Source: Candidatus Poribacteria bacterium
GTDB taxonomy: Bacteria; Poribacteria; WGA-4E; WGA-3G
DNA: 64,000 bases
Reading direction: 5' to 3'
NCBI GenBank assembly: GCA_965261115.1
Contig: OZ253447.1
Coordinates: forward strand, 3,402,011 to 3,466,010
Part shown: positions 18,578-45,029 of the stretch, piece by piece
How positions within the stretch are numbered: position 1 is the stretch's first letter
Layout of the letters: every line of letters begins with the position of its first letter
Notes under the pieces: model-generated
Databases searched by the model: none
What the model was told of the DNA's origin: nothing
Seen by the model: only the letters and a program-made list of their open reading frames with translations
Translations under genes and position numbers: made by a program

Positions 18578-19705
18578 CTAAATCGGTCGCCACCGGATGA
18601 TACAGAAATGTGAGTTCCCTGTAGCGTTCTCCCATTTGCTGACATCACCATAGCAGGAACCGATGAAAGTCAATATCTCTTCACCGTCTAAACTGACGTG
18701 TCGCGGGAAACCTGCGACGTGTCCGTGACAGAGATAGTAGATTTCATCTGACCAAGTTTTGCCGTTATCGTCGCTTACCATCGCACGACCGCTGCCGAGT
18801 TCGCGTGGATAACGGTGGTCGTACGCTACGACAGCACGGTTATTAGAAAGCCCAACAGCAGCACCGTGGCATTGTCCGTGTACACTCGTCAATTGACGCA
18901 GATCCGTCCATGTAGCACCGTTGTCTACTGAGTCAGCAAGAAAAACAGTTTTGTTCGTGTGGGGTTGGTCTGGCGGTCCAGGTTGGTAACGAATGACACC
19001 GAGCAGCTGCCTTGGGAAAAGTTCTGCGATGTTGACCTCATTGCCGTAGTCCGACAGCAAAAAGCGGGTTGAGAAGGTGTAGCCGTCATCGTCAGAAACG
19101 AAGACGTAAGTCGGATTCGTGCCTTCCTCAAACGGATCATCACGTCTTTTGATCGGGAGGAGAAGCGTTCCATCGCTGAGACGGGTTAGGCTTGAACCCG
19201 CAACAGTTTTCTGAAACGGTGCGACATCTATCTCGCTCGTCTGTTCCCATGTTTCACCTTCATCATCGGACATCCAGACAGTGGGCGGTTGTTCTTCACC
19301 CTGTTGACTTACGTTAATCAGGTGCCCGTGACGATTGGCTTGCAGCAACCATCCGTTGAAACCGAACGCAGAAGGATCTCTATTGAGGTGTTCCCAAGTT
19401 TTACCACCATCCGTGGATTTAGAGATGATAGTGTGCTGGACTGCATAGATAGTGTTATCGGGAGCCAACACAAGATTTAATCCCTGATAATGCGCTTGTG
19501 GGTCCAAAGGCATGCGGGTTTTCTCTACTGCTATCTTGTTCAGAACACCATCGCGGGCATGGAGAATATAATCATCCGCTTGCATATCGCTCAATTGGTT
19601 TGGGGTGACGACAGCACCGCCCATGTTTTCGGTTGACAGCATTAGTGGTTCCTCCTGGGCTATCCCAATTGCGGAAGTAATAGAAAATGGCACAGATTTA
19701 CTCAT
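18578..19705 (-). CDS. BNR/Asp-box repeat glycoside hydrolase (sialidase-like)
   Basis: Five Asp-box motifs (STDGGKTW, SDDEGETW, SDDDGYTF, SVDNGATW, SDDNGKTW). The ATG at 19705 overlaps the upstream TGA (ATGA coupling). Confidence 0.8.
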   Translation of the reverse strand: MSKSVPFSITSAIGIAQEEPLMLSTENMGGAVVTPNQLSDMQADDYILHARDGVLNKIAVEKTRMPLDPQAHYQGLNLVLAPDNTIYAVQHTIISKSTDGGKTWEHLNRDPSAFGFNGWLLQANRHGHLINVSQQGEEQPPTVWMSDDEGETWEQTSEIDVAPFQKTVAGSSLTRLSDGTLLLPIKRRDDPFEEGTNPTYVFVSDDDGYTFSTRFLLSDYGNEVNIAELFPRQLLGVIRYQPGPPDQPHTNKTVFLADSVDNGATWTDLRQLTSVHGQCHGAAVGLSNNRAVVAYDHRYPRELGSGRAMVSDDNGKTWSDEIYYLCHGHVAGFPRHVSLDGEEILTFIGSCYGDVSKWENATGNSHFCIIRWRPI

Positions 19706-21312
19706 TGATTTGCCGTCTCGGGATCTTCCGTTGAAATGTAATAATAACCCTGCATGATGCACATTTCATCCTCAGATGTTAATCCGAATCGAAGCGGTAC
19801 ATCCGTATCGTAGTTGCTGTGAGTGCACTGAAAACGGAGGCCATCGTTGTGATCCAGTATTAAGGGCGGATCGAATAGATTTGGAAACGAGGTGTCGTAA
19901 GAAATGCTCCGATGCAGCAATTCCCCTGTGAATAGCCGATTGATTTCAAAGAGTTCTCCGTGCCGATGCATGTGAGAACTCACGGAGATCAGATGCAAAC
20001 GCGCATTAGGTGGAAATCCGTGTTGAGCGAGTTCATTTTTAACGTGCCAGTCTGCTCCTGTCACACGAGTTGTTCCAGGTGGAACGTTAATATTATAATT
20101 ATGGACAAGGAAAACCTTCGCTTCATACTTTACCTCTTCGGGCGGAATCGTATAGATATTCACATAGACCTCACCGTGCATCGTTTCAGTGCCAAGTAAA
20201 TTGATGTAATGTGAGTTGAGGTCGTAGACAGCATTCCCCGGAAGCCGAAGCGCTACACCTTTTGGAAATCGGAAACTTGTGTCAGTCGTTTGCGACCCCG
20301 CGATGAGAAAACGCTCAACACCGATTATTCCGAACGTTCCGATATGCGCGAGGTCGAATAGCCTGAAGGTATCGTTTGGGTCAACACCGATCCCTGGTGT
20401 CGCTCCAATCTCTAATAAACCTCTTTCAATAGCGGCATCCGTCAGATAAAATATAGCGAAGTGGTGGCTCCCGACGGGATAGTATATTTCTACACCGTTC
20501 ACGAAAATATCTTCCTGAATGGGTTGCCCGTTTTCGTCAACGATTTGTGTTGCATAGTAAACCTCGCGCTCTGTTCCGGGTTCAATCTTGAAAGATGGTA
20601 AATGGAGTTGATAGCCTTGCCCCGGTGGTGGCCGTACTGGCGGTTCAAATACCTCAAGTGGATCGCGTAGGACGGAAAGATCGCCAATCCCGTCCAGTAT
20701 CCCTTCTTGTGGGGCACCTGCGGTAATCCAAGTCCGAATTGCATCTATCTTGCCAGAATGAAGTGTTCCAGCGTTGAAAGGCATTCGCGCCCCTTGTTCA
20801 GGTGTAGGATCCATCAGTTTTTTCAAAAGAAAGCTATTCTCTGGGTTGCCCGGATCTATCAACTTCATACCCGCCGCAACGGCTGCAGGGTTCTGTGGAA
20901 CGCGACCGACCAAATCTTGATACGAAAGTTCATAAGTGAGGTTCAAATTACCGGCATTTGCAGGGGCAGCATGGCAAGCACTATTCGCACAACTCTTATC
21001 GAAGATGTAGTCCTGAATTTCGTGATATGTTGAATTGTCATTTACCTCTGTTTTACCGAAACTGTTACTTACCCGAACCAGATCCAGCACGTTGACTATT
21101 CCGTCCCGATTGACATCGGGACTCTGTAAAGCGTTTCGATCTCCGGGTTGCCCGAGGGCAGCAGCGACGAGTACTAACTCTTGGATATTCACGGTCCCGT
21201 CTTTGTTGACATCCTCTAACAGGGTAGAAGTATCGTCGTGCGCGAACGCAAAGAAGGATACTCCACTCAGAAATAAAAAGAGCAGCATGGAATGAATCGT
21301 TTGTTTCAACAT
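19702..21312 (-). CDS. secreted copper type II ascorbate-dependent monooxygenase-like protein (PHM/DBH-like N and C domains) with two N-terminal dockerin-type repeats and a C..CH cytochrome-like motif
   Basis: Signal peptide. DVNKDGTVNIQELVLVA and DVNRDGIVNVLDLVRV dockerin repeats. HHF and SHMHRHGE histidine motifs. C-terminal SEDEMCIMQGYYY typical of Cu2_monoox_C. An alternative start lies at 21351. Confidence 0.7.
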   Translation of the reverse strand: MLKQTIHSMLLFLFLSGVSFFAFAHDDTSTLLEDVNKDGTVNIQELVLVAAALGQPGDRNALQSPDVNRDGIVNVLDLVRVSNSFGKTEVNDNSTYHEIQDYIFDKSCANSACHAAPANAGNLNLTYELSYQDLVGRVPQNPAAVAAGMKLIDPGNPENSFLLKKLMDPTPEQGARMPFNAGTLHSGKIDAIRTWITAGAPQEGILDGIGDLSVLRDPLEVFEPPVRPPPGQGYQLHLPSFKIEPGTEREVYYATQIVDENGQPIQEDIFVNGVEIYYPVGSHHFAIFYLTDAAIERGLLEIGATPGIGVDPNDTFRLFDLAHIGTFGIIGVERFLIAGSQTTDTSFRFPKGVALRLPGNAVYDLNSHYINLLGTETMHGEVYVNIYTIPPEEVKYEAKVFLVHNYNINVPPGTTRVTGADWHVKNELAQHGFPPNARLHLISVSSHMHRHGELFEINRLFTGELLHRSISYDTSFPNLFDPPLILDHNDGLRFQCTHSNYDTDVPLRFGLTSEDEMCIMQGYYYISTEDPETANQ

Positions 21313-21468
21313 GATTAACAACCCCCAATTCTTTAGCGTATAAACAGACAAGTCAGAAACTTTCTCTTGTCTGATATGATGAATTATGGCAAAATGTTTG
21401 ATGCCTCTTATTCGATTAGTTTACACGATGGAACCGTACAAAGCAAGCGATTTTAAAGAAAAACAGAT

Positions 21469-33188: not shown

Positions 33189-34013
33189 TTAAGACTTATC
33201 TGACAATGGACCCCCATCTCCGTATGAAAAAACCAATGGTAGGTGCGCATCATCTGCCAACACGTCACCGGCTTTCAACTTCGCGTACACTTCATCAGGC
33301 AACGCGCTTTTTTTACCATTGAATGTAGCATCCTCCGGCATAAAGAGCATCGCAAACGCACGACGGGGGTATGTCGTCATATTCGGTCCCGCCGCATGCG
33401 CGACCATCCCACTGATGAATACGCCGTCTCCGGCTCTCATCTCAGCTGGATATGGTTCAATCTCTGCCCACTCTGGATATTCGCGGAACAACTCACCGAT
33501 GCCGACTTCTCCGAGACTGCCACCAACCTCAAAACCGCTCGTCTTGTGTGTACCGGGTAGAAAATACAGACAGCCGTTCTGAATCGTTGCATCGTCAAGT
33601 GCTACCCAGAACATGATTGCCTGATGCGAATAAAATGGATCGTAGGGATTATCGACATGGAAATTCGTCGGGTTTGCCCACGGTTGCTTAAACATGGCGT
33701 GGTCGTGATACAATCGCACACCTGAAGTGCCAGCGAGATCTGCCGCCATCCTACCCAACTCTGGCGCGAGAATCAACGCTTTAACCTTCTCGCTCATCTT
33801 CCACAAATTGACGCATTGAACGAAGACGTTCCCGTAGTAACTGTCTCCTTTCTGATTGTGATACATATCATCGCGCTTCATAAACTGTGCGACAGCCGCG
33901 TCAACAGCATCCTGCCACGATGACAATTCTGATCCTTTCAGAAAATCGTCAATAACCAGAAATCCGTTTTCACGGTAAGATTCAACCTGATCGCTCGTAA
34001 GTTGTGTATTCAT
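33189..34013 (-). CDS. phytanoyl-CoA dioxygenase (PhyH) family oxygenase
   Basis: HVDNPYD HxD motif. PhyH-like N-terminal LTSDQVESYRENGFLVIDDFL. Confidence 0.8.
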   Translation of the reverse strand: MNTQLTSDQVESYRENGFLVIDDFLKGSELSSWQDAVDAAVAQFMKRDDMYHNQKGDSYYGNVFVQCVNLWKMSEKVKALILAPELGRMAADLAGTSGVRLYHDHAMFKQPWANPTNFHVDNPYDPFYSHQAIMFWVALDDATIQNGCLYFLPGTHKTSGFEVGGSLGEVGIGELFREYPEWAEIEPYPAEMRAGDGVFISGMVAHAAGPNMTTYPRRAFAMLFMPEDATFNGKKSALPDEVYAKLKAGDVLADDAHLPLVFSYGDGGPLSDKS

Positions 34014-37226: not shown

Positions 37227-39740
37227 CTATTTCAAGATTAACATCTTCCGCGTTGCGGTGAAATCGCCTGCAGTGAGGGTATAAAAATAGACACCGCTCG
37301 CGACCCTTTCACCAAATGCGTTTTTACCATCCCAATACGCTGCACGACTTCGGTGCTGATACATACCCGCTGGTTGATACCCAAGTGCCAATGCTCGCAC
37401 CAATACTCCATTTACCGAATAGATGTGCAATGTGACATCGACGGGCTTCGCCAACTGATACGGTATCCATGTTTCTGGATTAAACGGGTTCGGATAATTC
37501 GCAAGTAGTGCCGTCTCTTTCGGTATCAACGTCACGAGGAGTTTTTGTAAAAACAGGATCCCGCGTAGTGATGTTGTATCCATGAGATTCAATTGCTGTG
37601 CAGCGGAAAGCCACTGTTTGACGTCTGTAGCAGCGAGCATTTCTGAGGCTTGAGGATTTAGAGAAGGTGCGGCGGCATTATTGCCTAATGCTCCAGCAAC
37701 CAAGACGAGATCCGCAATGTTGACCTGTCCATCGCCATTGACATCTGCAGTATTCTGTCCTGTCTCGCCGAGATTTGAAGCGACTAATACCAAATCCGCA
37801 ATGTTGACAGTCCCATCACCGTTAACATCTCCTTTGAGTTTAGTGGGTTCAGTTATCTCTGCGTTTTCAATCTGAGGGAGAAATGTCTCGCCTGCTCTGT
37901 TTGAAAGCAGCACATCAGATAAGGTTAGAGTGGATGCTTTCGCTGTGATAACCTCAAAGGTAAGAGTAGCGAGGGGACCATCTCCATCACTTTCTCCGGC
38001 GAGCGATGCAGCGTTGAGTTTTACGAGATTGCCCTCCACTTTCGGCTCTACAAAGAACGCATCCGCTGGTAAAAAATCACCATTCATACCTGAAACAAAT
38101 CGGAGGGCTGTATCATCAAACTGCACGGTTGCCTGATAGCCTGCGACATTTTCGCCGTTAGCAATTTTCAGGGACAATTTGAGTTGTTGACCGATATTAG
38201 GGGACTGCACACTTGCAGGCGAGAGACTCACCGTATCTGATCGGTCCCCTGTATTGTAATCAGTAATTGATTCAACAGACGGCAACGAAACTTTGTCGTT
38301 ATTTCCTAAAAGGAAGTTAGCGATTAGTTCAGCAGCAACCTTGCCTTTAGGGTTTACCTCGTTAAAGGTTTGATAGACAATACCAATCCTTCCACGATTA
38401 CCATCCCGGACAATAACCGGATCCGCTCTGGTGGCTTGTGAGGTACCTGTATCACTCGCAAGAACCTTTTCAGCAAACCAGTCCCCGGTAAGTTCATCAA
38501 GGTGAAAGGCCCTATCGGATTTAAAATTCATAAGGCTTGGAGTAACCTCTTTGCCATCTTTCGTTACTACCATTGGGGTATTATTTTCCACCCCGAAGTC
38601 CCACATTGTGATATGTGGAATATCCATAATGGCTTGTAAAGCTTGGACATCATTATGCACGTTGCCACTGGACACATAACCAAAGTAATCACCATGGTTA
38701 AGAATAGTATTTCCGTCAGTTGATTCAATCCAATTTTCTGCCACAGAACCGTCCGGTTGACTATTAGGAGACGGGTAAATAGAAGTTGGTAGGGTCCCGT
38801 AGAGGATTAAAACATCTACGTTACCATCTGAAGTTGTTTGAAGCATCCAGTCTCTAACAGAATCTTCGGTTTGAACAATTTCGGCTTGAATACCTTCTGA
38901 AGAAAGCAATTGCTTTGTGATTTGAGATTGCCGATTGGCATCATCATGGCTTATCCAACTAACAGTCCCTGTATACATCAGAACGTTTATGTTTTCATAA
39001 GGTTTTGGAGGATCTTCTTGCAGATTGATTTTTCTGAAAATTGGACGGCTATCTAACACAATTGCGTCTTCTTTTGTCATTCGCATTCTATCACCCCAAT
39101 CTTCAGTAGTATCTCCCCAAGCTTGGACAGTTCCATTTAAAGATTCACCATTATTATAGTTGTTATGTCCCGGGTCCAGTCCGAAAGCGTGGCCCAATTC
39201 GTGTGCTACTACACTAAGATAGTGATGCGGGAAATCATCTATCATATCCATAGTTACTATTGCATTACCGCCCCATCTATCACCGTGCCATGTATGCCCC
39301 CAAGCAAAACCTCGTCCCCATTGACCATGCATTTGTAAACCGCCCAAGATAATTAAATGCACATTATCACGAGAATCCCAATTGAGATCATTGTTGAATT
39401 TGTATGGGAGTTCGGATCTAACTGAATTCCAATTGTCGTTGGCATTCGTATCATAGTGATCAGTGTTGTGTTTAGCGTTAATTGTATGTATAACAAGTTT
39501 TCCATTTTCATCTGTTTCTAATGGAAATGTTTTATCAGTAAAATCGTGTCGCGTCATTTCTGACTGATAATATTTCTGAATATCTTTCATTATTTTATCA
39601 TGGTATTCATGATCTATGTCTGGAGCATCTATTGGTTTAAAATACAGAACATGAACATCGAATTTAGCAATGGATGACAGAGACGATACTGAAATTAATA
39701 TTAGGATCAAAAACGTTAGTAGAAGTCGGAAGTGTTTCAT
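37227..39740 (-). CDS. secreted zinc metalloprotease (HEXXH zincin) with two dockerin-type repeats and T9SS-type C-terminal sorting domain
   Basis: Signal peptide from the ATG at 39740. VVAHELGHAFGLDPGH zincin motif. DVNGDGTVNIADLVLVA and DVNGDGQVNIADLVLVA dockerin repeats. C-terminal NYPNPFNPET..IYSVNGVLV..GVYFYTL matches the Por/T9SS CTD. Confidence 0.75.
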   Translation of the reverse strand: MKHFRLLLTFLILILISVSSLSSIAKFDVHVLYFKPIDAPDIDHEYHDKIMKDIQKYYQSEMTRHDFTDKTFPLETDENGKLVIHTINAKHNTDHYDTNANDNWNSVRSELPYKFNNDLNWDSRDNVHLIILGGLQMHGQWGRGFAWGHTWHGDRWGGNAIVTMDMIDDFPHHYLSVVAHELGHAFGLDPGHNNYNNGESLNGTVQAWGDTTEDWGDRMRMTKEDAIVLDSRPIFRKINLQEDPPKPYENINVLMYTGTVSWISHDDANRQSQITKQLLSSEGIQAEIVQTEDSVRDWMLQTTSDGNVDVLILYGTLPTSIYPSPNSQPDGSVAENWIESTDGNTILNHGDYFGYVSSGNVHNDVQALQAIMDIPHITMWDFGVENNTPMVVTKDGKEVTPSLMNFKSDRAFHLDELTGDWFAEKVLASDTGTSQATRADPVIVRDGNRGRIGIVYQTFNEVNPKGKVAAELIANFLLGNNDKVSLPSVESITDYNTGDRSDTVSLSPASVQSPNIGQQLKLSLKIANGENVAGYQATVQFDDTALRFVSGMNGDFLPADAFFVEPKVEGNLVKLNAASLAGESDGDGPLATLTFEVITAKASTLTLSDVLLSNRAGETFLPQIENAEITEPTKLKGDVNGDGTVNIADLVLVASNLGETGQNTADVNGDGQVNIADLVLVAGALGNNAAAPSLNPQASEMLAATDVKQWLSAAQQLNLMDTTSLRGILFLQKLLVTLIPKETALLANYPNPFNPETWIPYQLAKPVDVTLHIYSVNGVLVRALALGYQPAGMYQHRSRAAYWDGKNAFGERVASGVYFYTLTAGDFTATRKMLILK

Positions 39741-39790
39741 GAGGGTTCCGTCTGTTACATACTTAGAGTCTATCATGATTGTAAAAAACC

Positions 39791-40594
39791 TTAATCATAA
39801 TTGCTTGGTCGATGATCGCCGAGGAGTCGTCTCTGCCGAGGGCTCGCTTGGGCGAGAATGGATGCATCAAACTGAAACTTATTCAGATAGGGCGGATATT
39901 TCTGTGTAATCATCCGCATGGCATAGTGGACTTGCATGAGATAGCGGACTTCATTACTCGTATTGGCAGAGCCGCGATGCCAGACTTCGCTGCGGAAAAG
40001 CACGACATCCCCGGCATTACATAAGATACTCTCTTCTCCGCGGTTATTCCACTCGGTTGCACCGTTTGGGGAACACCCAGAGAAATGGCTGCCCGGAACA
40101 AACTTCGTCGGTCCCAATTCTTCATACATATCGTTGAGATAGTAATGGGCAGTGGTGATGAAGATTGGGATTTTGACGCGCGGATCAGAACGAACGTCTG
40201 CCGGTAGAGAGATTGGCAGCCAATCGGTATGTAATCCCTGATCTGGACGGTCGGGTCCTGTCAGCCACGAATGCATACCGATGCAGTGGCAATCCTCGCC
40301 GTGCGCCGCCTCGGCAACTTCAATAACAGGCGATCTGTCAAGGTATTGGAGATACAACGGATCCCGATTAAACGAGTTGCTGATGAGCTTGTGAAGGAAT
40401 GCGTTGCCATTTTGCGGGGTTTCATCCCGGTCATGAGATTCTGGGATCGCCTCTAATCGATCCATAGTCGCTCGTAATTCAGCGATTTCATCGGCGTCAA
40501 GCACGCTGGGGAAATAGACATAACCATCCCTTTCGAGTGCTTCAACTTGACTTTCTAAGTCGTCGTATGCAACGAGTGAAAGAGCTTTCGCCAC
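39791..40594 (-). CDS. PhyH-family Fe(II)/2OG dioxygenase (tandem paralog 1)
   Basis: GLHTDWLP HxD motif. GTG start at 40594 with an AAGGAG RBS. Highly similar to the adjacent gene. Confidence 0.8.
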   Translation of the reverse strand: MAKALSLVAYDDLESQVEALERDGYVYFPSVLDADEIAELRATMDRLEAIPESHDRDETPQNGNAFLHKLISNSFNRDPLYLQYLDRSPVIEVAEAAHGEDCHCIGMHSWLTGPDRPDQGLHTDWLPISLPADVRSDPRVKIPIFITTAHYYLNDMYEELGPTKFVPGSHFSGCSPNGATEWNNRGEESILCNAGDVVLFRSEVWHRGSANTSNEVRYLMQVHYAMRMITQKYPPYLNKFQFDASILAQASPRQRRLLGDHRPSNYD

Positions 40595-40662
40595 TTTTGG
40601 TACTCCTTTCAGATAGCTGACAACCAAGCCCACAAGGACACACCTCAAATTATGTGTCACCT

Positions 40663-41466
40663 TTAATCATAATTGCTTGGCCGATGATCGCCGAGGAGCC
40701 GTCGCTGTTGAGGATTCGCTTGGGCAAGGATCGATGCGTCAAACTGAAACTTATTCAGGTAAGGCGGGTATTTCTGTGTAATCATCCGTTGTGCATAATG
40801 GACTTGCAAGAGGTAACGGGTTTCGTCAGCCGTATTGGCGGAACCCCGGTGCCAGACTTCACTGCGGAAAAGCACCACGTCCCCAGCATTGCATAAGATA
40901 CTTTCTTCCGTTCTGCCTTTCCACTCGGTTTGCCCGTTCGGAGAACACCCAGAGTAATGACTACCTGGGACAAACTTCGTCGGTCCCAGTGCTTCATACA
41001 TATCGTTGAGATAGTAGTGGGCAGTGGTGATGAAGATTGGGACTTTGACGCGTGGGGCAGAACGGATATCTGCTGGCAGCGCAATTGGTAGCCAATCGGT
41101 ATGTAACCCCTGATCCGGACGTCCCGGTCCTGTCAACCACGATTGCATCCCGATACAATGACAATCCTCGCCGTGCGTCGCTTCAGCAACTTCAATAATC
41201 GGTGATTTGTCAAGGAATTCGAGATAGAGTGGATCTCGATTAAACGAGTTGTTGATGATTTTATTGAGGAATCCGCCGCCATTTTGAGGCGTTTGGTGTC
41301 GATCCAAGCACTCTGGGATCGTTTCTAATCGATCCATAGTCGCTCGCAACTCAGCGACTTCCTCAGCATCAAGCACGTTGGGGAAATAGACATAACCATC
41401 TCTTTCCAGTGCTTCCACTTGGCTTTCTAAATCGTTGTATGCAATAAGTGAAAGGGCTTTCGCCAT
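40663..41466 (-). CDS. PhyH-family Fe(II)/2OG dioxygenase (tandem paralog 2)
   Basis: Same motifs. ATG at 41466 with an AAGGAG RBS. Near-identical length (267 aa) and sequence to paralog 1. Confidence 0.8.
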   Translation of the reverse strand: MAKALSLIAYNDLESQVEALERDGYVYFPNVLDAEEVAELRATMDRLETIPECLDRHQTPQNGGGFLNKIINNSFNRDPLYLEFLDKSPIIEVAEATHGEDCHCIGMQSWLTGPGRPDQGLHTDWLPIALPADIRSAPRVKVPIFITTAHYYLNDMYEALGPTKFVPGSHYSGCSPNGQTEWKGRTEESILCNAGDVVLFRSEVWHRGSANTADETRYLLQVHYAQRMITQKYPPYLNKFQFDASILAQANPQQRRLLGDHRPSNYD

Positions 41467-41625
41467 TTTTGGTACTCCTTTCGGACGATAGCAATAGGTC
41501 AACGCTTCTCGCTATGATATGTTAACCGCAACGAAGTTGTCAATGAAAAAATATGTCGGAGTTGGATTTCAAGCGTCCGGATTTCCTTTAAGCTCCACCA
41601 CAAAGCGATTGCCTCAATACCTCAG

Positions 41626-43792
41626 TTATACTGCCTTGAGTTTTCGCCATAGAGTTGTACGACTGATCCCCAAACGTTGTGCAGCGAGCTGTGGCTTCCC
41701 ATCAGACGCCTCCAAAACTCTTTGAACCAATTCACGTTCCAATGCGGCAAGTGGGTTGCTTTCCCTGAGTGCCTGCGTAACAATATCATCTCTCGACGAA
41801 ATAAGGTCGAGCGGTAAATGTTGCTTTTCAATGCTTCCACCCTGACATTTGACGAATGCATGCTCTATAATATTTTCCAACTCTCGCACATTGCCGGGGT
41901 AGGTATAATCCATTAAGATTTCAAGGGCATCGGGTGCGATCCGATGAATAGATTTTTGGGTCTGTTGACTGAATTTTTCAATGAAGTGTTCAATGAGGAG
42001 TGGAATGTCATCTCGTCTTTCACGGAGTGGCGGCGGCGTAATCGGGACGACGTTGAGCCTGTAGTATAAATCCTCGCGGAAACGTCCAGCATCAATTTCT
42101 GTTTTCAGGATTCGATTTGTCGCTGCAATGACGCGGACATCTACTTGCTTTGTATCAGTTGAACCAACCATTTCATATTCGCCTTCTTGCAAGACGCGAA
42201 GCAACTTTGCTTGTGTACTGAGACTTAACTCGCCGATTTCATCAAGAAAAAGGGTACCACCGTCCGCAGCTGCAAATCGTCCTTCACGCGTTGTGATGGC
42301 ATCGGTAAACGCACCTTTGACATGTCCAAAGAGTTCACTCTCCAGCAGATTATCAACTAAGCCTGCGCAATTGACGCGAATGAAGGGCTTTTTTGCCCGA
42401 TCGCTATTGTAGTGGATCGCGTGAGCAATCGGTTCTTTGCCGGTACCCGCTTTCGCCTTGAATCAGGACAGTTGTTTTCATGGGGGCGACGAGTTGAATC
42501 AACTCGAAAATCTCCTGCATTTTCCGATTTTTTCCGATGAGATTCCCAAACGAATGGCGCGCCTTGAGTTGGGCACTGAGTGCCTTTACCTCCGAAAGAT
42601 CACGGGCGAATCCCTGGATAAATTCCCGCTCGTCATGCACAATTGGGACCGCGCGAATTTCCAATGGTAAGCGGCTTTTATTTTTATGCGACAGCTCCGT
42701 TTGGAAAGTAATCGGGTTCTGTTGACCGAGGCCTTTAAGCATTTCGTCGGTGTTTTGAAATTCATCGGGAGGCATTAGGTCGCGCAGCGACAGATTGACG
42801 AGTTCTTGGTGTGTGTAACCAAGCCAGGCACAGAAATTTTCGTTTACGGTAACAAATGCTTCTGTCAGTGATGGACAAATGAAGATTGCGTCATTGGACA
42901 TCTCAAAGAGTGTGCGGTATCGTTTGTTGTTTTCGGCGAGTTTGTCTGTCCAATTCCCTTTTTCAATCAGAATTGAGAGTTGCCCAGCAATCGGTTTCAG
43001 TCGTCTAATATGTGCCTCGGAGAATGCTCGGGGTTGTTCACTGGTGAAAAAGACGACCCCAATCGGTTTACCTTGCACCTTGAGCGGAAGTGTTAGATTT
43101 GAGCGCATCCCTTCTTGAACCATGAGTCTTGTCCAGTGCGTCGGTCTTTTTGCGAGAGTTTCCTTAAAATCGTCGATAATTCGTGCTTCGCCTGAATTGA
43201 GAATAGGTTCAAGACTTGACCCTTTGATTTTTGCTGAGAACCCGTTGTCCAGCAAGATTTTTCTGTTGGATTTCGTTTTGCACTGCACTAAGTCACCGGA
43301 GAATTCGTCAATGAGTGCGATGCCTAACCGGTTATGTGGCACTATGCGCTGAAGTCCAGCGTGGATATTCTCAAAGACTTCATCGAGCGTCTTTCCAAGT
43401 TGAATCTGCTCAAGGATTCCATAGATATGATCAGCTTCAACAGTTTGGTTAAAAACAGTATCTTCGAGTCTATCACTCATTGGTGCTTCAGGAGTGACTG
43501 CGATCTGAAGGGTATCTCCATCAAGCCGGAGCGGATAGGTTCGGACATTCGGCGTCGTAATAGGGCATCCACTTTTCAGATCGTATTGCCAACCGTGCCA
43601 GGGGCAGGTAACAACTTCACCCTCCAGTGTTCCTTCGTTGAGTGGTCCTCCCAGATGTGGACAGGCATTATTGATAGCATAAAATCTTTTACCCGTGTTG
43701 AAGATTGCGATGCTTTTATTGTCTAATTTGATGACAATGCTCTGTCCCGGTTCGATTGCAGATGTTTTAACGACATTCATCCACTTCACCAT
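41626..43792 (-). pseudogene. sigma54-dependent transcriptional activator with N-terminal Rieske [2Fe-2S] domain (Rieske-GAF-PAS-AAA+-HTH), +1 frameshift inside Walker A near 42444
   Basis: Rieske CPHLGG..CPWHGW. GAF and PAS regions. The Walker A reads GESG then shifts frame to [12 protein letters not shown].. (expected GESGTGKE). The downstream frame carries GAFTDA, the ESELFGH-type motif, RVIAATN, a Fis-type HTH ([14 protein letters not shown]). Confidence 0.75.
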
Positions 43793-43872
43793 CTTTCCTC
43801 CACGCGTTAGCAGGATTTGTTACCTATAGGTCATAGATTATCACATGATGGAGCAAATGTCAAGAATTTTGT

Positions 43873-43902
43873 TTCATTTATGAACATTGTTTCATTTATG
43901 AA
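43873..43902. promoter_or_regulatory. two copies of the palindrome TTTCATTTATGAA 17 bp apart; candidate enhancer (UAS) sites
   Basis: Direct reading of the sequence. They lie about 150 bp upstream of the -24/-12 promoter. Confidence 0.4.
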
Positions 43903-43946
43903 GTAATCTTTATTTTTGTGATTCTTGGGCAATTCGTTTAGATTTT

Positions 43947-43982
43947 GTTTCAGATTTGAAATGCGGCAGTAAAATCTGAAAC
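43947..43982. promoter_or_regulatory. 11-bp inverted repeat GTTTCAGATTT-N14-AAATCTGAAAC; candidate activator binding site
   Basis: Direct reading of the sequence. It is centred about 85 bp upstream of the -24 element. Confidence 0.35.
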
Positions 43983-44039: not shown

Positions 44040-44055
44040 TGGCACGAAACTTGCA
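44040..44055 (+). promoter_or_regulatory. sigma54 (-24/-12) promoter TGGCACGAAACTTGCA
   Basis: Exact match to the TGGCAC-N5-TTGCA consensus, about 78 nt upstream of the cupin gene start. Confidence 0.6.
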
Positions 44056-44132
44056 ATGCAATAATGTGTAAGCAGGACTTAATTGCTAAACACTTGGCTT
44101 CTAAACACTTCTAACCTACGAAAGGGATTATA

Positions 44133-44522
44133 ATGAACACAGCATTTGACAGACCTTACAGACCTGTGGATCTGAACACATCACTCACCGAGGCATTTTC
44201 ACTTACCTCTATGGCTGAACAGTTGATGGAAGAAGCTACATCTGCCACTTCTGGTAGAGCTTCGTTGACATTAGCCCGTGGAGATGAAATGACTGTTATC
44301 CTGATTACCTTAAAAGCAGAATACACGCTTGACGAACATCCAGCGCCTGCCGCTGCGACGGTTGTTATGCTTAGTGGCAGCATTATCTTTAAAACCAGTA
44401 CTAAAAATATCACGATCGTCCAAGGTGAATCGGTGACCTTTACGGCTGACATTCTTCACTCAGTTCACGCGAACGAGGATAGTACATTTCTTGTCATTAT
44501 CGGTGGCAAGCATGCTGAGTGA
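44133..44522 (+). CDS. cupin-domain protein
   Basis: Small beta-barrel protein with a cupin-like pattern (..LSGSIIFKT..TIVQGESVTF..HSVHANED). First gene downstream of the sigma54 promoter. Confidence 0.55.
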   Translation: MNTAFDRPYRPVDLNTSLTEAFSLTSMAEQLMEEATSATSGRASLTLARGDEMTVILITLKAEYTLDEHPAPAAATVVMLSGSIIFKTSTKNITIVQGESVTFTADILHSVHANEDSTFLVIIGGKHAE

Positions 44523-44618: not shown

Positions 44619-45029
44619 ATGAACCGTTATCTTGAACACGCCAATATGACCGTGAATGACCTTGAAAAAGCGATCGATTTTCTAACAACTGCCTTTCCAG
44701 ATTTTCGAGTCAGGGGCGGTGGCGATAACGCCAATGGAACGAAATGGTGTCATCTTGGGACTGACGATTTTTATATTGCGCTCTCAGATCGGAAGCATCC
44801 CTTCACGGGTGACCGTAAGGGGAGTTACGTAAACCATCTCGGTTTTGCTGTTGATGACGCTGAAGGTATCCGAGAACGCTTGCTCGCTGCGGGATATAAA
44901 GAAGGGTATAAGGTTGGACCGCATCCCCACCGAAAACGAATCTATTTCGTTTATGCGGACGGTTTTGAATGGGAGTTCGTCGAATACTTCACGGATGACC
45001 CAGCAAAACGGAACGACTATTCACAATGA
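44619..45029 (+). CDS. VOC-family (glyoxalase/bleomycin resistance/dioxygenase) protein
   Basis: LEHANMTVNDLEKAIDFL and HLGFAVDD motifs typical of the VOC fold. Confidence 0.75.
   Translation: MNRYLEHANMTVNDLEKAIDFLTTAFPDFRVRGGGDNANGTKWCHLGTDDFYIALSDRKHPFTGDRKGSYVNHLGFAVDDAEGIRERLLAAGYKEGYKVGPHPHRKRIYFVYADGFEWEFVEYFTDDPAKRNDYSQ

Follow-up and report, generated by a model that had tools for sequence, protein, structure and literature searches.

A putative family of Rieske-domain sigma-54 activators in Candidatus Poribacteria and a member with a frame break in its Walker A codons

Contig OZ253447.1 of a Candidatus Poribacteria bacterium carries, within the 64,000-nucleotide stretch analysed here (termed the window), a minus-strand gene for a predicted sigma-54 activator in which a Rieske [2Fe-2S] domain is fused N-terminally to GAF, PAS, AAA+ and helix-turn-helix (HTH) domains, and in which the reading frame is broken by one extra nucleotide. 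The gene starts with the ATG at 43792-43790, which is preceded by GGAGGAAAG, and ends with the stop codon at 41628-41626; once one base is taken out, it encodes a protein of 721 amino acids (aa), referred to below as the repaired protein. A 340-bp intergenic region, which contains a candidate sigma-54 promoter and candidate upstream activating sequences (UASs), separates it from a divergent gene that starts at 44133. The gene is probably (at about 0.8) a member of a small, uncharacterised family of enhancer-binding proteins that is found almost only in the sponge-associated Candidatus Poribacteria. The coordinates of all features are collected in Table 1.

Every Pfam domain of the repaired protein scores above its curated cut-off, and the order Rieske–GAF–PAS–AAA+–HTH, which the initial annotation had read from the letters of the window, is conserved in about 50 intact homologues and is thus borne out. 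The motifs quoted in that annotation (CPHLGG...CPWHGW, GESG and TGKE on either side of the break, GAFTDA and RVIAATN) were likewise all found in the sequence, and the Walker B motif, FLDEIGE, is present in the repaired protein. As the window stands, the Walker A motif (GxxGxGKE) is not intact, with GESG and TGKE located in separate frames; it becomes complete only once one base is taken out, and all homologues have an intact GESGTGKE or GDSGTGKE. The loop that contacts sigma-54 reads GAFTDA throughout the clade of the window, i.e., among proteins of 80% identity or more, and GAFTGA, GAYTGA, GAFSGA or GSYTGA in the other family members. The GAFTDA variant is compatible with activator function because OrpR (DVU2106), a working activator, has the identical variant.

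A homologue search with the repaired protein, as proposed in the initial annotation, returned 54 proteins with the identical Pfam domain set, at 95% down to 51% identity. Most of them are intact and comprise 712-743 aa; the exceptions are three truncated or disrupted copies (P0020, P0030 and P0051) and a fourth protein, P0054, whose Rieske domain is degenerate. Past these homologues, the scores fall sharply to those of ordinary PAS-AAA+ or GAF-AAA+ activators. The named sources are 'Candidatus Poribacteria bacterium' throughout, plus one 'Acidobacteriota' metagenome-assembled genome. Furthermore, in a scan of one genome per species (185,579 species) for the Rieske and GAF domains together, a two-domain match occurred at seven loci, all of Poribacteria, while the other 73 loci matched the ~100-residue Rieske domain alone. 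Among 1.84 billion representatives clustered at 50% identity, Rieske and GAF matched in one stretch only in P0047 and a few fragments. No other architecture of a Rieske-bearing activator emerged from a search with the Rieske domain only, which returned short free-standing Rieske proteins and fragments.

The initial annotation could place this architecture in no characterised regulator, and this assessment stands in so far as no curated NCBIfam model or equivalog reaches its cut-off for the repaired protein. All NCBIfam matches start near residue 400, and the second-best of them, the NorR model, aligns from residue ~384 onward and remains below its cut-off. Full-text searches of the literature library yielded no account of a Rieske domain as part of a sigma-54 activator or of any other transcription factor, and nothing on sigma-54 regulation in Poribacteria. 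The architecture is, however, not unique to the window, since members of the family are already deposited in public databases under the generic label 'sigma 54-interacting transcriptional regulator'. The gene thus encodes an enhancer-binding protein with a sensory module that is so far undescribed, even though the proteins themselves are on record.

The Rieske domain contains the ligand motifs C44-P-H46 and C63-P-W-H66 (CxH...CxxH), whose conservation in homologues had been treated by the initial annotation as decisive for its reading. In a family alignment of 38 sequences, C44 and C63 are invariant (38/38) and H46 and H66 are present in 37/38, so that all four ligands are kept in every member except P0054, the sole aligned protein with a degenerate Rieske domain, which has lost both histidine ligands and kept the remainder of the protein. 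High-potential Rieske proteins possess a further pair of cysteines, which forms a disulfide; no such pair is seen in the alignment, and on account of its absence, the domain is predicted to be of the ferredoxin type. It most resembles the low-potential Rieske ferredoxins that belong to ring-hydroxylating dioxygenase systems, its best solved sequence relatives being the naphthalene dioxygenase (NDO) ferredoxin 2QPZ (E 1.9e-13), CarAc (1VCK) and BphF (1FQT). These ferredoxins are the best matches to residues 1-100 in both sequence and fold, and they share the CxH...CxxH ligands and the absence of the disulfide pair; in contrast to the domain described here, which is fused to a signalling and transcription protein, they are free-standing electron carriers of ~105 aa. 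The Rieske beta-sandwich fold is supported by the Pfam match and by an AlphaFold model of residues 1-285, which was matched by Foldseek to Rieske ferredoxins with template modelling (TM) scores of 0.75-0.81 and a root mean square deviation of ~2.6 Å in the best matches; the GAF part of the model matches generic GAF domains. The predicted local distance difference test (pLDDT) scores of the single domains are mostly 70-93, and those of the linkers at residues 102-120, 282-299 and 408-412 fall below 50, with values of about 30 in the first of them; the arrangement of the domains relative to each other is of low confidence in this model and in that of the full-length protein.

Enhancer-binding proteins serve as a model for the gating of an AAA+ motor by a sensory domain. 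To our knowledge, few characterised members of this class have metal-based inputs, e.g., NorR with its iron centre and OrpR with its [4Fe-4S] cluster, and we know of Rieske centres as electron carriers and oxygenase components but not as sensors.

OrpR of Desulfovibrio vulgaris is an experimentally characterised sigma-54 activator that senses redox potential through its Fe-S cluster. Analogous to OrpR, the protein of the window is a single-component enhancer-binding protein with a predicted N-terminal Fe-S sensory input; both are associated with divergent sigma-54 operons that are, or in the window would be, governed from dedicated binding sites, and the GAFTDA variant of the GAFTGA loop occurs in both. 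However, the [4Fe-4S] cluster of OrpR is held by cysteines inside the PAS domain, whereas a [2Fe-2S] cluster in a separate Rieske domain, ligated by two cysteines and two histidines, is predicted here. The PAS cysteines of the Rieske-bearing family (in FICPS and NFCAW) are not invariant and are replaced in several members. The sensor region of NorR, which is metal-based and contains a GAF domain, keeps the AAA+ domain repressed until the signal is received (PMC2941729). A GAF domain in the sensor region ahead of AAA+ is common to NorR and the present family, but NorR senses nitric oxide (NO) at a mononuclear non-haem iron inside its GAF domain, lacks Rieske and PAS domains, and controls NO-detoxification genes. 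The Rieske activators resemble the OrpR and NorR types in outline but fall outside both, since their cofactor site differs in domain as well as in ligands and their PAS cysteines lack conservation.

The intergenic region displays the elements expected between such an activator and its target. An exact TGGCAC-N5-TTGCW sequence, with the -24 and -12 elements of a sigma-54 promoter, is matched once in the 64 kb, where 0.05 matches are expected by chance. The palindromic motif TGTTTCA-N4-TGAA is matched four times in the window against 0.06 expected, and three of these matches are clustered at 43870-43960, which places the three candidate UASs 80-170 bp upstream of the promoter. In each of nine further Poribacteria loci, with protein identities as low as 66%, the promoter is kept on the divergent strand, and UAS-like sites lie at comparable positions in all nine; under the thresholds applied, each locus has two or three of them. 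These sites are retained even where a ~170-bp insertion parts them, and four loci in which the activator gene is disrupted also retain the promoter and UAS-like sites. Such a promoter with activator sites upstream is the arrangement typical of an enhancer-binding protein and the operon that it targets.

The genes that face this promoter vary among the relatives. In the window, L001, L003 and L004, they encode a 129-aa cupin-like protein and a 136-aa protein of the VOC (glyoxalase/bleomycin-resistance/dioxygenase) superfamily, whereas in L005, an M24 peptidase/creatinase gene and a VOC gene are found, and in L010, genes for a ~614-aa protein with an N-terminal Rieske domain, a flavin mononucleotide (FMN) reductase and a VOC protein. 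A Rieske protein of ~590-605 aa is encoded on the divergent side in L008, L088 and the contig of P0049. The VOC gene is the most recurrent operon member, and the ~600-aa Rieske protein appears to be the older neighbour of the activator.

Table 1. Features of the activator locus and its surroundings in the window; E values are those of Pfam, and residues are numbered in the repaired protein.
Feature	Position	Strand	Residues	Evidence or remark
Whole frameshifted gene, Rieske-GAF-PAS-AAA+-HTH sigma-54 activator	41626..43792	-		ORFs (open reading frames), Pfam, homologues
Upstream ORF as the sequence stands, 462 aa	42404..43792	-		
1-nt insertion site in Walker A codons	42440..42448	-		GGGTACCGG; relatives GGTACCGG
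Remainder of gene in shifted frame	41626..42445	-		TGKE of Walker A, GAFTDA loop, Walker B, AAA lid, Fis-type HTH
Rieske [2Fe-2S] domain	43535..43786	-	3-85	E 3.5e-19; predicted ligands C44, H46, C63, H66
GAF_2			134-277	E 4.7e-13
PAS_9			301-401	E 4e-14
Sigma54_activat			418-584	E 2.8e-70; profile positions 1-167 of 168
AAA_lid_14			590-668	E 4e-28
HTH_8 (Fis-type, C-terminal)			681-720	E 1.9e-11
Sigma-54 contact loop GAFTDA	42298-42315	-	494-499	
Candidate UAS 1 and 2	43870..43902	+		adjacent palindromes TGTTTCATTTATGAA, 18 bp apart (43870, 43888)
Candidate UAS 3	43946..43982	+		TGTTTCAGATTTGAA (site at 43946), part of 11-nt perfect inverted repeat GTTTCAGATTT / AAATCTGAAAC
Sigma-54 promoter	44040..44055	+		TGGCACGAAACTTGCA; -24/-12 elements, 78 nt 5' of the ATG at 44133
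Target operon gene 1 (predicted)	44133..44522	+		129-aa protein, weak cupin match
Target operon gene 2 (predicted)	44619..45029	+		136-aa VOC protein
13-nt direct repeat	43806-43818 and 44068-44080	+		GTTAGCAGGATTT / GTAAGCAGGACTT
Fourth exact copy of UAS motif	38083-38097	-		TGTTTCAGGTATGAA
Tandem PhyH paralogues	39791-41502	-		
Third PhyH paralogue	33189-34013	-		
Dockerin/cohesin proteins	37227-39776 and 19702-21420	-		large, secreted-type

The ~590-614-aa Rieske proteins (L008:3229-5007(-), L010:3652-5496(-), L088:5007-6824(-)) form a large family with an N-terminal Rieske domain and a C-terminal region of ~480 aa, for which no sequence match was found in Pfam, NCBIfam or the PDB. In L089, a Poribacteria genome of 5.29 Mb, the gene for such a protein stands alone behind a sigma-70-like promoter. 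Control of this gene in trans by the activator in the clade of the window was considered and rejected, as L089, the sole genome checked, has this sigma-70-like promoter and no UAS.

Several further features of the intergenic region and its sites are recorded here. A 13-nt direct repeat brackets the UAS-promoter region and could act as a leader element or as the site of a second regulator, and in L004, the AAGCAGGACTTAATTG segment 3' of the promoter is duplicated. Insertions of ~170 bp with internal palindromes (e.g., GATGCGATAAATCGCATC and CCGGTAGGTGCGGTTTGTAACCGCACCGG) occur upstream of the activator gene in L007, L084 and L085, where they separate the gene start from the UASs or the UASs from each other, with the UASs and the promoter retained; they look like small elements of the miniature inverted-repeat transposable element (MITE) type. 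The fourth exact copy of the UAS motif lies inside the gene for an 849-aa dockerin/cohesin protein and probably reflects chance.

Directly downstream of the activator gene are two tandem, ~85% identical paralogues of the PhyH (phytanoyl-CoA dioxygenase) family, and a third lies 6 kb away. For the PhyH gene that follows the activator, no sigma-54 promoter was found, just a sigma-70-like match. In related genomes, PhyH genes, as many as three, and a gene for a Cu/Zn superoxide dismutase occupy this position. Additionally, two genes of the window encode large proteins of the secreted type with dockerin and cohesin domains, one of which adds an M12-like metallopeptidase region and a FlgD immunoglobulin-like domain, and the other a copper monooxygenase C-terminal domain.

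The frame break was placed by the initial annotation in the Walker A codons, and a 1-nt insertion is indeed located there, within the minus-strand sequence GAAAGCGGGTACCGGCAAAGAA; the intact-gene form of the site reads GCGGTACC and the frameshifted form GCGGGTACC. The extra base had been named as the T of AGC GGG T ACC, but the comparison with relatives makes a G more likely. The sequence at the site is AGC GGT ACC GG in L001, L003, L004, L005 and L006; AGC GGG ACC in L007; and GGC or GGA ACC in L008, L009 and L010. The GGGTACC of the window is more parsimoniously explained by an extra G in a run of two than by an extra T, because AGC GGT ACC stands in five of the six closest relatives, including L004, the closest of all (46 differences in the 2166 nt of the gene, i.e., ~98% identity, and 93.7% identity over a wider region). 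The repaired protein is identical whichever of the two bases is removed. As the sequence stands, the upstream ORF contains the Rieske, GAF and PAS domains and ~30 initial AAA+ residues, followed by 14 out-of-frame residues and a stop, and the shifted frame has no usable start codon until the TTG at 42204, which is already past Walker B.

The frameshift was seen only in the window and in none of the loci of relatives, and the ratio of nonsynonymous to synonymous substitution rates (dN/dS) between the window and L004 is 0.070 upstream of the break and 0.078 downstream. Since this constitutes no signal of decay, the frameshift would be a very recent mutation, unless it stems from an error in sequencing or assembly. 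A pseudogene and a sequencing error were two of the three origins offered by the initial annotation, and both remain; the third, a regulated frameshift, is very unlikely. That the lesion is real, marking a young pseudogene in a lineage that is losing this regulator, has in our estimate an even chance. Orthologous activator genes are split in L084 by an IS630-family element after residue 167, on a contig with 29.9x coverage (L084:6001-9074), and in L087 by a ~3-kb insertion with a DDE_Tnp_1 transposase (L087:1384-6668); these are independent natural events that base-calling error could not produce, and the activator has therefore been lost repeatedly in nature. The window is also not generally error-prone: all stop-to-stop ORFs were scanned for adjacent overlapping pairs, and ten ORFs from the clearest groups, which were run through Pfam, included no split gene. 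The sequence GGTACC, which may be a methylation motif, was also considered as the site of a systematic error, but this was rejected, as the lesion occurs at just one of its 11 sites and the ten others are free of it. A gene that is truly being lost is nevertheless at odds with a single lesion, merely 46 differences from L004, a dN/dS of ~0.07 on both sides, and a promoter and three candidate binding sites that are all intact. The same selection signature is that of a working gene and favours an assembly or sequencing artefact, in which GG was read as GGG and the organism has the gene intact; we regard this as a serious explanation whose probability falls somewhat short of one half. It agrees with the lengthening of a homopolymer by one base and with every relative being in frame at the break. 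Low-coverage long-read assemblies of a related species are frameshifted in the activator gene at two different positions, and in L085 (6x coverage), the neighbouring pectate lyase gene is also split, so that such artefacts do occur in data of this kind. A run of two bases is, however, an unusual place for a homopolymer error, and the absence of a second frameshift among the ORFs tested also counts against an artefact. Synthesis of the full-length activator by +1 ribosomal frameshifting or transcriptional slippage has as its sole point in favour that the shift restores a complete, well-conserved protein, and we consider it highly improbable. Walker A DNA was read at nine further orthologous loci, all of which lack the extra base, and the reading frame passes unbroken through this motif in the ~50 intact homologues. 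A GGG with a common Tyr codon behind it is not known as a +1 shift site, and neither a Shine-Dalgarno-like stimulator upstream nor a slippery run is present. As judged from recoding of the prfB and dnaX types, three consecutive G fall far short of what transcriptional slippage requires. Recoding is thus unlikely because the site is not conserved, no slippery sequence exists, and the G run is too short.

If the lesion is real, the product would be a 462-aa fragment that comprises the sensor only, devoid of the ATPase and DNA-binding domains; since no start codon precedes the TTG past Walker B, no active ATPase could be made from the remainder. The cupin-VOC operon would then be without its activator, and the loss in the window would be one among several that this regulator has undergone independently in the Poribacteria of sponges.

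For the intact members of the family, a mechanism can be proposed by analogy, in which the N-terminal sensor module would gate the AAA+ domain, as in NorR, NifA, XylR and OrpR, and an oligomer of the activator would bind the palindromes and open the sigma-54 promoter through ATP hydrolysis. The state of the Rieske cluster is envisaged as one input to the activator, to which GAF and PAS may contribute ligand inputs, and candidate oxidants of the cluster would be O2, redox-cycling compounds or quinones, in the manner of SoxR or OrpR; redox or oxygen sensing had been suggested as a possibility by the initial annotation. Because FMN reductase, VOC and cupin genes are found in the target operons, this gene content suggests that the operons may respond to redox-active or electrophilic compounds in a SoxR-like manner. 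SoxR is a possible functional analogue in that oxidation of its low-potential [2Fe-2S] cluster turns on detoxification-type genes, with which the FMN reductase and VOC genes of the present operons may be compared; it differs, however, as a MerR-family, sigma-70-dependent regulator with an all-cysteine cluster and no sequence relationship to the family described here.

We tentatively propose, with odds that we place nearer to one in three than to one in two, that the Rieske-GAF-PAS activators represent a new class of Fe-S-based sigma-54 regulators, in which a ferredoxin-type Rieske cluster would act as the sensor. In this proposal, a cellular reductase would hold the cluster in the reduced state, O2, quinones or other redox-cycling compounds of the sponge host would oxidise it, and its state would turn on small operons for detoxification or for oxidoreductases (VOC, cupin, FMN reductase and the ~600-aa Rieske protein). 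The ligands and the surrounding CPHxGGPL...CPWHxW motif are kept in 37/38 members over ~50% sequence divergence, which argues for a selected, cluster-bearing domain. Several points nevertheless weigh against the overall reading of the gene, this proposal included. The binding of a cluster and the control of activity by its state are predictions drawn from the protein sequence; the binding of the activator to the palindromes is deduced from their position and conservation; no rpoN gene or RpoN box lies within the 64-kb window; and AlphaFold predicts no confident contact of the Rieske domain with GAF or AAA+ (full-length predicted TM score, pTM, 0.42). Because the operon content differs between clades, it does not point to one physiological role. 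P0054, without its histidine ligands, indicates that the Rieske input may be dispensable. The last point is also what would be expected if the Rieske domain were not a redox sensor at all but a docking or decoy module for a partner, such as a reductase or the ~600-aa Rieske protein, or a vestigial fusion, with sensing left to GAF and PAS. Consistent with docking, the divergent neighbour in distant relatives is itself a Rieske protein, 29% identical to the activator in the Rieske domain, and at one locus an FMN reductase gene is added, which suggests a shared electron-transfer partner. Conversely, the motif conservation described above speaks for a cluster, and in the clade of the window, the Rieske domain is still retained where the gene for the Rieske partner is no longer adjacent; we therefore judge a docking or vestigial role to be unlikely, with about one chance in four.

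A conserved Rieske-bearing activator with an identifiable promoter, sites and small operons offers a compact and testable system. As its host belongs to an uncultivated phylum of symbionts, an intact orthologue, e.g., P0001, would be suited to study in a heterologous host. If the redox-sensing proposal is true, this family would provide the first Rieske centre used as a signalling cofactor in the control of transcription.

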